This document shows, piece by piece, positions 37,178 through 45,794 of a stretch of DNA of 64,000 nt. Position numbers and translations under genes: made by a program. Origin of the DNA: Escherichia phage vB_Eco_F27. The notes below the pieces were generated by a model that made no database searches, had not been told where the DNA came from, and saw only the letters and a list, made by a program, of their open reading frames with translations. The stretch lies in sequence record OP870146.1; one strand, 5' to 3'. How positions within the stretch are numbered: position 1 is the stretch's first letter; each line of letters starts with the position of its first letter.

Positions 37178-37486
37178 TTACATAAGAAGCAAACGTTCTA
37201 CAGGAGTACCATCAACCGAAATTACTTTATCAAGGCGGAAAGAACGCCACTGACCTAACTCGGTATCGAATGCTCGAACTGATTCACGAGGTTCAGAACG
37301 AACTTCTGTTGATGGGTTACTATTTTCATATTTGACTTCAAGTTCATCGCGGGAGGCAAACATCGTACGAACATCACCGTTAGCCTTTTCAAATACAACA
37401 CAATGAACGCCTACAGACAGAATAGTTTTAATACGTTCACGAAGAACCATAGTTTCTTGTTCAGTTAAAATCATATTATTCACCAC
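37178..37486 (-). CDS. Hypothetical protein (T4 31.1 position)
   Basis: 102-aa ORF between cd and gene 31. Confidence 0.5.
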   Translation of the reverse strand: MVNNMILTEQETMVLRERIKTILSVGVHCVVFEKANGDVRTMFASRDELEVKYENSNPSTEVRSEPRESVRAFDTELGQWRSFRLDKVISVDGTPVERLLLM

Positions 37487-38057
37487 AAAAGTTTCGGATT
37501 TGTTCCCAATTCAGAGAACGAAGATTATTACGAGAGTACTGAATTACTTCAATACCGGCTTGTTTTAGAATGTCTGCCCAATTTTCAGGAGATCTGTCAT
37601 ATAATTCTGCGTATACAACCTTTTTAATACCTGACTGCGTAATAGCTTTAGTGCAATCAGGACATGGAGAAAGTGTCGTATACAACGTAGCACCTTCAAT
37701 AGAATTACCTTTACGAGCTGCAAACAAAATTGCATTCAATTCCGCATGGATTTCGTTATTAGCAGACCATGCACTATGAGCAGCCCGATGTTCTTTAGCC
37801 AAAACAAAATTATCCACCCGTCCAAATGCTGTAGTGCCTTCTTTAGGCCCAGCAACGATGACCGGGCTTGGTTTATTCTTCAACCAACCGTTTTCGGATG
37901 CATGTTCGCAACAGTTTGTACCACCTGAAGGAGAGCCATTATAACCTGTAGAAATAATGCGTCCATCTTTTTCAATGACGGCACCAACTTTCCATGAACA
38001 ACATTTTGATTCTTGAGAAATCAAATAAGCAATTTGAAGATATGTGCTAGCTTTCAT
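37476..38057 (-). CDS. cd: dCMP deaminase
   Basis: 193 aa (T4 Cd 193 aa); zinc-binding deaminase motifs HAE and PCxxC. Confidence 0.9.
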   Translation of the reverse strand: MKASTYLQIAYLISQESKCCSWKVGAVIEKDGRIISTGYNGSPSGGTNCCEHASENGWLKNKPSPVIVAGPKEGTTAFGRVDNFVLAKEHRAAHSAWSANNEIHAELNAILFAARKGNSIEGATLYTTLSPCPDCTKAITQSGIKKVVYAELYDRSPENWADILKQAGIEVIQYSRNNLRSLNWEQIRNFCGE

Positions 38058-39049
38058 TATTGAACCTTATTAATATAAGTTAACAGCTCTTTAGTTTGTT
38101 CCCAACTGATGCACGCATCGGTAACGGAAACGCCATAGGACATATTATCAGAAATTTTTTGATTTCCTTCATGTAGGAATGATTCTATCATAATTCCTTT
38201 GACCAAATCATTAGCTGCTAAATTTTTACCAATACCAATTTGATTGCTATAATGCCCAGCAGCGTTTGCATGGCTACAGTCAACCATTACATAATGATTC
38301 AGACCTACTGCACTTGCTTTGTTAGAAGCTTCTTGAATATCAGAAGAATGATAGTTCGGGCCGTTAGTCCCGCCACGCAATACGATATGCGTATTCTGAT
38401 TACCTTCAGCTTCAACAATGCCTACAGTACCATCGACGTCCATACCCATATACCGATGAGGCCAGGCGGCACTATACATCGCGTCTGTAGCTACTTTAAT
38501 AGAACCATTGGTTGCGTTCTTGAAGCCTACGCACATCGGTAGACCTGAAGCAATTTCACGATGTGTCTGACTTTCAGTCGTACGGGCGCCAATAGCAACC
38601 CATGAGAAAATACCAGAAAGATACTTAATCGTGAATGGGTCTAATACTTCAGTTGCTAATGGAAGTCCCATACGTAGAAGTTTACGACACAATGTTCGTG
38701 CAACTATAAGACCGTGGTTCATATCAAAACTTCCATCAAGATATGGATCATTTACAAGACCTTTCCAACCTACGGTAGTTCGAGGCTTTTCAAAATAAAC
38801 GCGCATCACTAACAGAACATTAGGAAGACGAGTTTGAAGTTCAGCCAGACGTTTGCCGTATTCAACAGCAGCAATAGGGTCATGAATTGAACAAGGACCT
38901 ACAACAATAAGTTTGCGTGGGTCTTCACCGTTCATAATCGAATTAACTTGTTCGCGATGAGAAGCCACTTGTGATGCGTAAGCTTCCGACAAAGGAATAA
39001 TCTCAGCCAGTTCTTTTGGAGAAATAAGTTTTCCGACGACAGGTAACAT
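38057..39049 (-). CDS. 3-deoxy-7-phosphoheptulonate (DAHP) synthase, class I AroG/F/H-like
   Basis: 330 aa; roughly half the residues match E. coli AroG as recalled, including GPCSIHD, VMRVYFEKPRTTVGWKG, IGARTTESQ(T/V)HRE, GFKN, ESxLxEGNQ, ITDACI; 1-nt overlap with the cd start. Confidence 0.85.
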   Translation of the reverse strand: MLPVVGKLISPKELAEIIPLSEAYASQVASHREQVNSIMNGEDPRKLIVVGPCSIHDPIAAVEYGKRLAELQTRLPNVLLVMRVYFEKPRTTVGWKGLVNDPYLDGSFDMNHGLIVARTLCRKLLRMGLPLATEVLDPFTIKYLSGIFSWVAIGARTTESQTHREIASGLPMCVGFKNATNGSIKVATDAMYSAAWPHRYMGMDVDGTVGIVEAEGNQNTHIVLRGGTNGPNYHSSDIQEASNKASAVGLNHYVMVDCSHANAAGHYSNQIGIGKNLAANDLVKGIMIESFLHEGNQKISDNMSYGVSVTDACISWEQTKELLTYINKVQ

Positions 39050-39169
39050 AACAATCCTTAGGAGATATAAACAGATTCTGATTCAACAATACCTTTAACC
39101 GGATTAGACAGGCTAAGTTGGTAGTGCTCAGATTTATGACCATTCTCGATAGTAATGAGATAGCTCTCA

Positions 39170-39406
39170 TTATAGTGTTCCATATACTCGAGTTGCTTCA
39201 ACTAAACCGTCACTGCCTAATTTAAGGCTAGTAATCTGGTCACCATCTTTAGGATTAACAATTATGAGAAAAGAACGTGGAGATTCTTGAATAACTCGTA
39301 ATGTTGCATCCTGGAAACGTTCAGACACTTTATTGATGAGTGCTTGAGCAAATTCTTTTACTTTAATCTGAAATTCGTGTACTGTAATTGGGTTTTCACT
39401 TAGCAT
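39170..39406 (-). CDS. Hypothetical protein
   Basis: 78-aa ORF with early promoter and conserved leader at 39407-39464. Confidence 0.45.
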   Translation of the reverse strand: MLSENPITVHEFQIKVKEFAQALINKVSERFQDATLRVIQESPRSFLIIVNPKDGDQITSLKLGSDGLVEATRVYGTL

Positions 39407-39436
39407 TTCTATTTCCTCATTTGTTGGTAGAGTTAT

Positions 39437-39464
39437 AGTATCACAACTCCACCATGTTGTAAAC
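39437..39464 (-). promoter_or_regulatory. Early promoter upstream of ORF 39170-39406
   Basis: GTTTAC-N16-GATACT, then leader CTACCAACAAATGAGGAAATAGAA before the ATG. Confidence 0.55.

Positions 39465-40145: not shown

Positions 40146-40146
<1 letters not shown>
39955..40146 (-). CDS. Hypothetical protein
   Basis: 63-aa ORF overlapping its neighbours on both sides. Confidence 0.4.
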
Positions 40147-41232
<1,086 letters not shown>

Positions 41233-44615: not shown

Positions 44616-45794
44616 TTAGAAATATTTTTTGTATGAATTGATTACATTTTGGTCTACATCATTATCAATTTGTGCGACAAGATAAGAGCTGATTTCAACT
44701 TCCTGAGGAGCTGCTTGAACTAAATCGGAGTTCAGATATTCACGAATCCAAGGATACGGATGCTTGGTCGGAGCATCAGTGATTGGGCATGGCAAACCAC
44801 ACTGTTTCATACGAGACACAGTCAAGTAATCAACAAAAGCACACATACTCTGTGTATTGATACCTGGGCATGTACCGTCTTTAAAGAGGTGTGCAGCCCA
44901 TTCCTTCTCTTGACTATTTACTTCCATAAAAATGTCAACTGCTTCTTGTTCACATTCTTTAGCAATTTGAACCCACTCATCGCCATCAGTACCAGATTGA
45001 AGTTGACGGATAATGTACTGAGTACCCTTGAGGTGGAGTTGTTCGTCACGAGCAATGAACTTCATAATCTTTGCATTACCTTCCATAATTTCCATATTTT
45101 TATGGAAGTTGAAAGTACATGCAAATGATACGTAAAAACGAATAGCTTCTAAGGCGTTGATAACATGCAAACAGAGGTAAAGAGATTTCATTAGCTCACG
45201 CTTCCAATATGTCTCATGCTCAATAGCATCTTCAATAACGTCTTCGTCTGCATTAATTTCTTTTTGGTATTCGATATCAGCTTTGGCATTTTCCCAATAA
45301 CGAGCTTTAACCAGAACATCATCATAATATCGTCCGATAGATTCGGCACGCTTCATAATAGCTTCATCTAATACAATCTCATCAAACACCTTCGATGGAT
45401 CTGTATAAAGATTTCGCATAATATGAGTATATGAACGAGAGTGAATAGTTTCACTGAAAGTCCATGTAGCAACCCATGTATCTAATGAAGGGTCTGAAAG
45501 CAATGACATAAGTACCGCAGATGGTGCTCTACCTTGGATAGAATCTAATAATGATTGATACTTAAGGTTGTTGGTAAAGATGTCCTGTTGGAACTGTGGA
45601 AGCTTATTAAACTGGGCCGAATCCAACATCAAGTTTACTTCCTCGGGACGCCAAAAGAACGAGAGCTGCTTTTCGATAAGCTCTTCAAAAACTTTATGAC
45701 GCTGAATATCATAACGTGCGAGGCCAAGACCAGAACCAAAGAACATCGGTTCATTCAAAACATCGACTTGTTGTGTGTTAAAAACTGTACTCAT
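44616..45794 (-). CDS. nrdB: Ribonucleotide reductase small subunit (class Ia)
   Basis: 392 aa, uninterrupted reading frame (no intron); position downstream of nrdA. Confidence 0.9.
   Translation of the reverse strand: MSTVFNTQQVDVLNEPMFFGSGLGLARYDIQRHKVFEELIEKQLSFFWRPEEVNLMLDSAQFNKLPQFQQDIFTNNLKYQSLLDSIQGRAPSAVLMSLLSDPSLDTWVATWTFSETIHSRSYTHIMRNLYTDPSKVFDEIVLDEAIMKRAESIGRYYDDVLVKARYWENAKADIEYQKEINADEDVIEDAIEHETYWKRELMKSLYLCLHVINALEAIRFYVSFACTFNFHKNMEIMEGNAKIMKFIARDEQLHLKGTQYIIRQLQSGTDGDEWVQIAKECEQEAVDIFMEVNSQEKEWAAHLFKDGTCPGINTQSMCAFVDYLTVSRMKQCGLPCPITDAPTKHPYPWIREYLNSDLVQAAPQEVEISSYLVAQIDNDVDQNVINSYKKYF

Follow-up and report, generated by a model that had tools for sequence, protein, structure and literature searches.

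Genomic Context and Predicted Expression

The DNA analyzed here, referred to as the window, is a 64,000-nucleotide stretch of the genome of the Mosigvirus-type phage vB_Eco_F27. On its minus strand, the ORF listing contains a reading frame of 330 amino acids that begins with ATG and spans positions 38057 to 39049, and profiles, alignment, and an AF2 model identify it as the coding sequence of a type I-alpha DAHP synthase. Its downstream neighbor on the same strand is cd (37476 to 38057), encoding dCMP deaminase, which was recognized by its profile matches (Pfam PF00383, 1.8e-26; PHROG 174, 8e-75) and shares 71% identity with T4 cd. The final A of the DAHP synthase stop codon TAA (38059 to 38057) is also the first base of the cd ATG, and the junction reads ...GTTCAATAATGAAAGCT. 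Upstream, and transcribed in the same direction, is a cd.2 homolog (DUF7320; 39170 to 39406, minus strand) assigned by profile and by comparison with T4. This is followed by a cd.3 homolog (DUF7355), two more small ORFs, and then pseT (40146 to 41045). The initial annotation had placed the 330-residue ORF between cd and the pseT side, with its stop overlapping the cd start by 1 nt; the ORF listing and the neighbor profiles confirm the placement, and the overlap is visible in the sequence as TAATG.

The boundaries of the gene are firm because an in-frame stop precedes the ATG by 11 codons and the interval contains no alternative start. A Shine-Dalgarno-like AAGGA (39055 to 39059, minus strand) is located 5 nt before the ATG, in the same place as the RBS annotated in Escherichia phage 55, giving the gene a ribosome-binding site of its own. 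The upstream stop also speaks against a mis-called start as the cause of the short N-terminus discussed below, as does the equally short N-terminus found in all genera.

Phage RB69 lacks the gene as part of a 1.1-kb cassette. In the window, an imperfect 19-nt direct repeat of the cd start stands on either side of this cassette. The upstream copy (ATAATGAGAGCTATCTCAT; 39155 to 39173, minus strand) is a degenerate duplicate of the junction between the cd.2 stop and the cd start, while the downstream copy (ATAATGAAAGCTAGCACAT; 38042 to 38060, minus strand) includes, by alignment, the stop codon of the synthase and the true start of cd. The two copies match at 16 of 19 positions, and both align to the one cd.2/cd junction that RB69 has. 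Also within the cassette is the 120-nt spacer that separates cd.2 from the synthase gene (39050 to 39169, minus strand). An RNA element in this spacer was considered and rejected, with no Rfam match at E <= 1 and a fold z-score of -0.88. A doubtful 47-residue ORF in the spacer (39058 to 39201, minus strand) is annotated as hypothetical in one relative; no similarity was found that would make it a remnant of T4 cd.1, and true cd.1 homologs sit between the synthase and cd in phages EcS1, X20, and PM2.

A site resembling T4 early promoters (GTTTACA, 17 nt, TG-n-TACTAT) is present in the cd.3/cd.2 intergenic gap at 39435 to 39463 on the minus strand. It is a consensus match only, and we use it as evidence solely because it agrees in position with the T4 early promoter Pe133295, which lies between cd.2 and cd.3. 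Sigma-70-like matches in the region are not above shuffled sequence (11 vs 14.0 +/- 3.9). A scan of the minus strand between the promoter-like site and cd returned no terminator-like site. With this early-type promoter upstream of cd.2, early co-expression of the synthase with cd is plausible; the two genes also share a strand and have overlapping codons.

Family, Fold, and Catalytic Residues

The encoded protein is a class I-alpha DAHP synthase of the AroF/AroG/AroH type, as the initial annotation had proposed. Its match to the Pfam family DAHP_synth_1 (PF00793; 7.4e-75, 251.8 bits against a cutoff of 25.5) and to two NCBIfam models (TIGR00034, 4e-128, 427 bits against a curated cutoff of 173.2; NF009395, 1.5e-136, 454.8 bits against 343) is far beyond chance. 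AroF is the closest of the E. coli isozymes at 51% identity, followed by AroG (47%) and AroH (44%). The isozyme-specific models for AroG (364 vs 568) and AroH (385 vs 463) score below their cutoffs, so the phage protein cannot be equated with any one of the three E. coli isozymes. The AF2 model (pLDDT 93.5, pTM 0.92) is a (beta/alpha)8 barrel that Foldseek superposes on 4HSO, 1GG1, 5CKS, and 1KFL with TM scores of 0.95-0.97 and rmsd of 1.3-1.5 A; for NmeDAH7PS and AroG the TM score is 0.96 and the rmsd 1.3-1.4 A.

The residues required for catalysis are all in place. The metal is expected to be held by C53, H260, E289, and D311, which correspond to AroG C61, H268, E302, and D326, and this Cys, His, Glu, and Asp are kept in 32/32 members of the phage clade. 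The ligands of PEP and erythrose-4-phosphate (E4P) are R83, K88, P89, R90, T91, A155, R156, K177, and R225; among these, R83, K88, R90, T91, R156, K177, and R225 are equivalent to AroG R92, K97, R99, T100, R165, K186, and R234. The KPRTTVGWKG loop is identical to that of AroF and AroG. Alignment thus gives no sign of the loss of metal- or PEP-binding residues that might have spoken against the assignment: all 11 tabulated catalytic positions are the same in every phage homolog and bacterial relative, apart from T100, which is Ser in two bacterial sequences. That exchange is a normal variant of the KPR(T/S) motif. The description of the enzyme as full-length holds for the catalytic barrel, which is complete, but the E. 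coli isozymes are 18-26 residues longer, and their N-terminal regulatory arm has no counterpart in the phage protein.

Distribution, Age, and Selection

The gene is not new, and belongs to a common, already-annotated family in T4-like phages. Homologs are encoded in 212 phage records, 139 of them at >= 95% amino acid identity, and many GenBank records already carry the label aroF or DAHP synthase, bearing out the earlier suspicion that relatives would have annotated copies. The protein in the window is 100% identical to that of phage p000y. It matches PHROG 5045 at 9.4e-182, with residues 1-330 aligned to positions 8-337 of the 341-position profile; this is the phage DAHP synthase family, in the 'moron/AMG' category. 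In addition to about 139 Mosigvirus-type records, the gene is kept in several other genera. It adjoins cd in at least six genera, and the same slot is occupied in Kanagawa-, Kagamiyama-, Marfa-, Winkler-, and Bragavirus and in an uncultured T4-like contig. T4 has only cd.1 to cd.5 between cd and pseT, as the initial annotation had stated, with cd.1 in the slot of the synthase gene. The gene is absent from T4 and RB69, in line with its description as an insertion relative to T4, but it is better taken as a long-standing occupant of this position in many T4-like genera than as a recent insertion.

Across relatives, the identity of the synthase to the window gene tracks the identity of cd. Phage clade members are 57-77% identical overall between genera, with a dN/dS of about 0.15-0.22, and the gene is under purifying selection. 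Its GC3 of 0.29 is like that of the flanking phage genes, in contrast to 0.51-0.57 for E. coli aroF, aroG, and aroH. In a neighbor-joining (NJ) tree, the phage proteins form a monophyletic clade to which no particular group is sister, and none of them exceeds 55% identity to a bacterial protein among 5.8 billion compared. The best bacterial matches, at 50-55% identity, come from unrelated phyla as well as from enterobacterial AroF, and with no sister group in the tree, no bacterial donor can be named. By these comparisons, the enzyme belongs to an old lineage specific to phages.

The Inhibitor Site

The phage enzymes depart from their bacterial relatives at the site where aromatic amino acids bind. 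The number of residues ahead of the catalytic Cys is 48-52 in 32/32 phage clade members compared with 58-95 in 99 bacterial relatives; relative to every one of the latter, the N-terminal arm is short by 6-11 residues. In terms of AroF, the truncation removes residues 2-10 and ends at Ile11. Four further positions are replaced across the clade. In AroG numbering, P150 has become Ile in 31/32 members (Pro is kept in 89/99 bacterial relatives), Q151 has become Lys or Arg in 32/32 (Gln in 96/99), S180 has become Pro in 32/32 (Ser in 95/99), and F209 has become Tyr in 31/32 (Phe in 95/99); the protein in the window has I, K, P, and Y at these positions. The effect of such changes is known from bacterial enzymes. 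In AroG, the P150L and S180F exchanges confer feedback resistance, and the main chain of the inhibitor is contacted by Q151/Q152 and S180/S181 (PMC9529685). AroF becomes insensitive to Tyr after replacement of Pro148 or Gln152 or after deletion of Ile11 (PMC5791370). D146 and L179, where mutation also gives resistance, are unchanged in the phage enzyme. The independent, non-T4-like enzyme of Aeromonas phage HJ05 has A, H, P, and V at the same four inhibitor-contact positions.

Because the N-terminal arm is missing and the residues that contact the inhibitor main chain are replaced, the phage enzyme is predicted to stay active in the presence of Tyr, Phe, or Trp. Bypass of feedback inhibition was among the roles first suggested for the gene, and the clade-wide loss of inhibitor-contact residues lends it genuine support. 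We found no literature description of this combination of a missing arm with fixed inhibitor-contact substitutions, nor of the clade's monophyly and distance from bacterial proteins, its position beside cd in at least six genera, or its dN/dS of about 0.15-0.2. Full bacterial regulatory decorations would comprise both an N-terminal extension and the hairpin of the aromatic amino-acid site, and the phage protein has the hairpin only, with strands beta6a and beta6b at residues 198-203 and 209-214 of the AF2 model. Altered decorations of this kind bear on regulation and not on membership of the catalytic family.

Within the clade, 11/15 inhibitor-site residues are invariant compared with 99/302 elsewhere in the protein (p = 0.0035). 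Since the altered site is more conserved than the rest of the protein and the hairpin is kept, the site looks remodelled under constraint rather than decayed, and it could bind a different effector. This raises an alternative in which the DAHP synthase is active and still under allosteric control, with a ligand other than an aromatic amino acid, such as an anionic pathway intermediate or a phage-relevant metabolite, sensed by a retuned site made up of Lys142, Tyr200, Pro171, Ile141, and Phe139. The substituted residues are invariant across genera that are otherwise only 57-77% identical, and Q151 to Lys and F209 to Tyr add charge and a hydroxyl instead of merely filling the pocket. However, no member has the N-terminal arm with which the partner subunit closes the pocket, the gene neighborhood offers no candidate ligand, and the conservation could equally reflect packing of the dimer interface once the arm was gone. 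On balance, we regard control by another ligand as rather unlikely.

Proposed Role During Infection

The observed family, fold, catalytic residues, synteny, purifying selection, and altered regulatory site form the basis of our preferred reading, which we hold to be reasonably probable: a catalytically competent, early-expressed, feedback-insensitive DAHP synthase that would feed the host shikimate pathway. The gene would probably be transcribed early, from the promoter upstream of cd.2 and on the same message as cd. Its product would carry out the metal-dependent conversion of PEP and E4P to DAHP and Pi, and the missing arm and fixed replacements would allow it to stay on despite Tyr, Phe, or Trp. 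During infection, DAHP would then be taken on by surviving host enzymes, from AroB onward, to give chorismate, aromatic amino acids, and cofactors derived from chorismate. The later steps are assigned to the host because no other shikimate-pathway gene is annotated in the close relative JK45, over 1-98 kb and 138-171 kb of its genome. We infer activity, early expression, feedback insensitivity, and a physiological benefit from features of the gene, and our literature search found no enzyme assay, expression data, or mutant phenotype for any clade member. Nor did it find experimental work on a phage DAHP synthase, as mentions are at the level of the domain (PMC11845039, PMC8022965), including that of the KLB31 enzyme as an AMG (PMC11845039). 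A point against the preferred reading is that host AroG, AroF, and AroH proteins should persist after infection, and what the phage would gain from one more enzyme is not evident. Since RB69 lacks the gene and still grows well, the gene must be dispensable, at least in the laboratory.

Other readings change what the enzyme is for, or whether it is an enzyme of this kind at all. An unregulated synthase might serve the phage mainly as an irreversible sink for E4P and PEP rather than as a source of aromatics. Removal of E4P would pull on fructose-6-P and glyceraldehyde-3-P via transketolase, yielding pentose phosphates for nucleotides and also for the arabinose on hydroxymethylcytosine. This would suit a gene that lies within a block of nucleotide-metabolism genes and overlaps cd, and JK45 has no annotated downstream shikimate genes over 1-98 kb and 138-171 kb. 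Most carrier genera also have the arabinose-5-phosphate isomerase of the arabinosyl-hmC pathway, and JK45 carries the arabinosyl-hmC gene cluster; this pathway has been proposed to draw on ribulose-5-P (PMC13326640). The co-occurrence is not strict, however, and may reflect no more than common descent. The isomerase is present in RB69, which certainly lacks the synthase, and in 57 Acinetobacter phage records, while about 25 Klebsiella phage records with the synthase are mostly absent among isomerase carriers. An obligatory link between the two was rejected, given isomerase without synthase in RB69 and many Acinetobacter phages and the apparent reverse in Klebsiella Marfavirus-type phages. The argument is also purely inferential, and because the non-oxidative route to pentoses itself runs through E4P, draining it wastes carbon. 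We consider such a sink improbable. A broader version seems unlikely to us as well. In it, T4-like phages of enterobacteria keep a natural, multiply substituted synthase with rewired allostery, either blind to aromatic amino acids or tuned to another effector, whose value would be to re-route central carbon instead of just adding to the aromatic supply; the gain would be an E4P/PEP sink drawing pentose phosphates toward nucleotides and arabinosyl-hmC, or chorismate-derived folate precursors for the thymidylate and hydroxymethylase enzymes of the phage.

A change of substrate, with arabinose-5-P or another phosphosugar used instead of E4P as in KDO8P synthase, might give a phage-specific sugar acid. 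DAHP and KDO8P synthases are both in PF00793, and these phages generate arabinose-5-P. Against this, the protein matches DAHP synthase models only (364-455 bits) and none of the KdsA profiles, its KPRTTVGWKG loop and every tabulated E4P/PEP ligand are the same as in AroG and AroF, and the neighborhood contains no partner enzymes, making the idea very improbable. Even less credible is that the protein is an inactive relic or moonlights without a catalytic role; we rate this lowest of all. RB69 and T4 lack the gene with no obvious handicap, but catalytic residues are intact in 32/32 members, dN/dS is roughly 0.15-0.2, the AF2 model is native-like and of high confidence, and about 139 Mosigvirus-type records as well as several other genera retain the gene.

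The gene itself is ordinary for its group, annotated in many public genomes and with a PHROG family of its own. About 200 sequenced enterobacterial T4-like phages carry it, and several of these have been used or proposed for therapy and biocontrol. What the sequence evidence points to is a naturally evolved, stable DAHP synthase with predicted feedback insensitivity. Metabolic engineers obtain such insensitivity by mutagenesis and often pay for it in activity or stability, so the phage enzyme would offer a test case that is already made and perhaps a useful component. RB69, in which the gene is naturally absent, and the near-isogenic relatives of that phage make a simple setting in which to ask how a lytic phage profits from a lone pathway-entry enzyme.

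Comparison with Known Systems

The window gene is a member of the family formed by PHROG 5045 and the GenBank genes labelled phospho-2-dehydro-3-deoxyheptonate aldolase or aroF of T4-like phages such as HX01, JK45, APCEc01, PEi20, EcS1, X20, and PM2; nothing sets it apart from them, and their records name the domain only. KDO8P synthase (KdsA) represents the sister family in PF00793. KDO8P and DAHP synthases belong to the TIM-barrel aldolase superfamily and share their PEP chemistry, and the phage protein keeps the DAHP-specific KPRT loop and the regulatory hairpin.

The closest solved structure by sequence is Tyr-sensitive E. coli AroF (PDB 6AGL/6AGM; 1.5e-104, 51% identity). The two enzymes have in common the metal ligands, the PEP/E4P ligands, the KPRT loop, and a Gly at the position of AroG S211, which goes with Tyr-type enzymes. 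The phage protein is, however, 26 residues shorter, without residues 2-10, with internal deletions of 5 and 3 residues, and with a shorter C-terminus. It has I, K, and P in place of AroF P151, Q152, and S181, and its gene has a GC3 of 0.29 compared with 0.51 in aroF.

Engineered or selected feedback-resistant enzymes provide a further parallel. These include AroG variants at P150 (P150L), S180 (S180F), and Q151, and AroF variants at P148 and Q152 or with Ile11 deleted. The phage enzyme is changed at P150, where it has a bulky aliphatic residue, at Q151, and at S180, where the hydroxyl is lost. Its N-terminal truncation has its edge at AroF Ile11, while AroF Pro148 is retained as P138. Whereas the laboratory variants are single mutations that often cost activity or stability, the phage enzymes display several changes at once, clade-wide and under purifying selection.

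The enzyme and its reading frame

The 330-aa minus-strand ORF at 38057..39049 encodes a type I-alpha DAHP synthase. It is matched by the Pfam model DAHP_synth_1 at 7.4e-75 and passes the cutoffs of both NCBIfam NF009395 (455 bits, cutoff 343) and TIGR00034 aroFGH (427 bits, cutoff 173), while falling below those of the isozyme-specific NCBIfam models for AroG and AroH. By sequence, the closest solved relative is E. coli AroF (6AGL/6AGM, 1.5e-104), with 51% identity compared with 47% for AroG and 44% for AroH. The catalytic residues all map exactly onto known positions, giving C53, H260, E289, and D311 as metal ligands and R83, K88, P89, R90, T91, A155, R156, K177, and R225 as PEP/E4P ligands. 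An AlphaFold2 model made from a 65-sequence alignment has a mean pLDDT of 93.5 and resembles solved DAHP synthases with TM scores of 0.95-0.97 and rmsd of 1.3-1.5 Å. Every catalytic-family and PHROG 5045 feature tested is present in the protein, and the only feature lacking is the regulatory site, which concerns control of the protein and not its identity. The initial annotation, which had described a full-length AroG/F/H-like DAHP synthase, is thus confirmed in its observation and supported in its interpretation, but "full-length" needs qualification.

The ORF starts with ATG, preceded by AAGGA 5 nt upstream, and the nearest in-frame stop lies 11 codons 5' of this ATG with no alternative start codon in between. 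Read directly, the end of the ORF is GTTCAATAATGAAAGCT, so that one base is common to its TAA stop and the ATG of cd, the dCMP deaminase gene (37476..38057, minus strand; Pfam PF00383, 1.8e-26; PHROG 174, 8e-75; 71% identity to T4 cd). The ORF and its 1-nt overlap, both proposed earlier, are therefore real. Upstream of the synthase are homologs of T4 cd.2 (DUF7320) and cd.3 (DUF7355), two further small ORFs, and then the polynucleotide kinase gene pseT (40146..41045).

An altered regulatory site

The regulatory site was compared between 32 members of the phage clade and 99 bacterial relatives, using AroG numbering. The phage enzymes have 48-52 residues before the catalytic Cys and the bacterial enzymes 58-95, which means that the phage proteins lack the N-terminal arm. 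In the AroG-Phe structure, Asp6/Asp7 at the N-terminus of the partner subunit help to close the inhibitor site. Position 150 is Ile in 31 of 32 phage sequences and Pro in 89 of 99 bacterial ones; position 151 is always Lys or Arg in the phages and mostly Gln in bacteria (96/99); position 180 is Pro in all 32 as opposed to Ser in 95/99; and position 209 is Tyr (31/32) as opposed to Phe (95/99). Whether Tyr or Phe is preferred depends on a switch between Gly and Ser at the S211 position, where the phage synthase has Gly, as do Tyr-type enzymes. The beta6a/beta6b hairpin is kept in the AlphaFold2 model.

In a set of 16 non-redundant members of the clade, invariance is commoner at inhibitor-site positions (11 of 15) than at the other non-catalytic positions (99 of 302; Fisher p = 0.0035). 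The site, though substituted, is not drifting, and this pattern fits a remodelled site under constraint, which might come from subunit packing without the arm or from a new effector. At positions 150/151/180/209, an independent enzyme that is 38% identical, from the non-T4-like Aeromonas phage HJ05, likewise departs from the canonical residues, with A/H/P/V. In this 79-kb phage (OQ594355; L012, 2899-4062) the synthase as annotated begins within the upstream gene, with a 65-nt overlap; a Met further in (residue 25 or 31) looks the likelier start and would again result in a short N-terminus.

Because the catalytic machinery is intact and the regulatory site is changed at positions tied to inhibition in published work, the most likely mechanism, judged from sequence, is a constitutively active DAHP synthase that would not respond to aromatic amino-acid feedback. 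Its DAHP would be handled by host enzymes, as the annotation of the close relative JK45, over 1-98 kb and 138-171 kb, contains no further gene of the shikimate pathway. Between cd.3 and cd.2, at the place of Pe133295 in T4, is a T4-early-type promoter-like site (GTTTACA-17-TACTAT, 39463..39435), and a scan found no terminator-like site from there to cd, making early co-transcription of the synthase with cd no more than plausible.

Distribution and age of the gene

By tblastn, a homolog is found in 212 phage records, 139 of them at least 95% identical to the synthase of the window, followed by Kanagawavirus (about 77%), Kagamiyama-, Winkler-, and Marfavirus-type phages (about 67-69%), and Proteus Bragavirus (about 58%). 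Over 2.8 kb, the region matches about 130 Mosigvirus-type phages of Escherichia and Shigella at 98-99% identity; phage p000y comes closest, sharing 98.9% of nucleotides and an identical synthase. At 95% identity or above, the synthase is present in about 139 Mosigvirus-type records and the Mosigvirus arabinose-5-phosphate isomerase in about 151, so approximately nine-tenths of these relatives have the gene. Shigella phage JK45 (NC_054940.1; L013, L016-L018) is filed as Tequatrovirus, yet is 98.6% identical to the window over the synthase region and carries the Mosigvirus arabinose cluster; its taxonomy looks inconsistent. The JK45 nrdB homolog (L017, 4312-6581) is split by an intron-like endonuclease gene, and the corresponding 392-aa ORF of the window at 44616-45794 is uninterrupted. 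If that ORF is nrdB, an identity assumed from gene order, the two near-identical phages would be polymorphic for a homing element.

As initially stated, T4 has only small ORFs between cd and pseT, with cd.1 occupying the synthase slot. In RB69, the type Mosigvirus, cd.2 abuts cd and window bases ~38061-39154 are missing. On either side of this 1.1-kb cassette is a copy of an imperfect 19-nt direct repeat that corresponds to the cd start region, one at 39173..39155 (ATAATGAGAGCTATCTCAT) and the other at 38060..38042 (ATAATGAAAGCTAGCACAT), both on the minus strand and matching at 16 of 19 positions. The single cd.2/cd junction of RB69 aligns to both copies, so presence or absence of the cassette is consistent with recombination at this short repeat, by either gain or loss. 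The upstream copy also creates a pseudo-start (ATG at 39170, "MRAIS..." compared with "MKAST..." for cd) heading a 55-aa out-of-frame ORF (39003..39170, minus strand) that is probably no gene. RB69 cd (L005, 6743-7252) is just 90% identical to cd of the window (37476-38057), while flanking genes are 94-99% identical, and is annotated 24 aa shorter (169 compared with 193 aa); beside the cassette junction, this may mark where recombination ended or may come from differing annotation.

Several observations favour long residence in this slot over recent insertion. The slot is the same in five other genera and an uncultured T4-like contig, and between genera the synthase diverges in step with cd (77 and 78-79%, 68 and 69%, 67 and 68%, 58 and 62% identity for synthase and cd, respectively). 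The GC3 of 0.29 is like that of neighbouring phage genes (E. coli aroF/G/H, 0.51-0.57), no bacterial protein among 5.8 billion searched exceeds about 55% identity, and an NJ tree groups the phage sequences as a single clade. The dN/dS between genera is 0.15-0.22. In EcS1 (L008, 3983-4318), X20 (L010, 3998-4339), and PM2 (L011, 3957-4232), a genuine homolog of T4 cd.1 sits between synthase and cd (blastp 1.5e-12, 1e-9, and 8e-6), so that cd.2, DAHP synthase, cd.1, cd was the ancestral order and cd.1 has been lost in Mosigvirus and Kanagawavirus. The "insertion relative to T4" originally proposed holds as an absence from T4; an old phage gene, missing from T4 and RB69, is the better description. 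The most divergent clade member (P0022, 59% identical; ENA metagenome contig L020, 2517-3515) retains Pro150, yet already has Lys151 and Pro180; its gene lies on a T4-like contig away from cd, and it may represent an intermediate or a form that has moved.

Possible roles

The synthase could possibly supply aromatic amino acids or cofactors made from chorismate, for example folate in its pABA part. With low probability, it acts as an E4P/PEP sink favouring pentose-phosphate supply, an idea arising from the overlapping distributions of synthase and arabinose-5-phosphate isomerase: most genera with the synthase also have this arabinosyl-hmC pathway enzyme, and the pathway is proposed to be supplied from ribulose-5-P. 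However, the isomerase, present in 261 phage records, overlaps the synthase by genus largely and not strictly, as RB69 and Acinetobacter phages have only the isomerase and Klebsiella Marfavirus-type phages apparently only the synthase. In JK45 (L016, 27257-30145) and RB69 (L015, 5709-8599), the sugar-activation cluster of this pathway comprises the isomerase, a GlmU-like bifunctional enzyme, and a phosphoheptose-isomerase-like protein.

Comparison with known enzymes

As a gene of these phages it is not new and already carries annotation. PHROG 5045 covers it end to end (9.4e-182), and many records carry the names phospho-2-dehydro-3-deoxyheptonate aldolase, aroF, or DAHP synthetase. The literature searched contained only passing mentions, as an auxiliary metabolic gene of Klebsiella phage KLB31 (PMC11845039) and, for phage phiC120, as a note on the domain (PMC8022965), and no experimental work on a phage DAHP synthase. 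The gene itself would be no surprise to a specialist. What is added is the clade-wide, selected loss of aromatic amino-acid binding determinants and the resulting prediction, specific and cheap to test, that this DAHP synthase is naturally insensitive to feedback; together with RB69 as a natural knockout, this regulatory twist makes a tidy experimental question.

Published work bears out the importance of the positions altered in the phage clade. The inhibitor main chain is bound by Q151/Q152 and S180/S181, P150L and S180F are feedback-resistant AroG variants, and in a related enzyme the Q159A and S188F equivalents lose inhibition by 50 uM Tyr (PMC9529685). AroF loses Tyr sensitivity when Pro148 or Gln152 is substituted or Ile11 is deleted (PMC5791370); compared with AroF, the phage truncation takes out residues 2-10, ending at Ile11.
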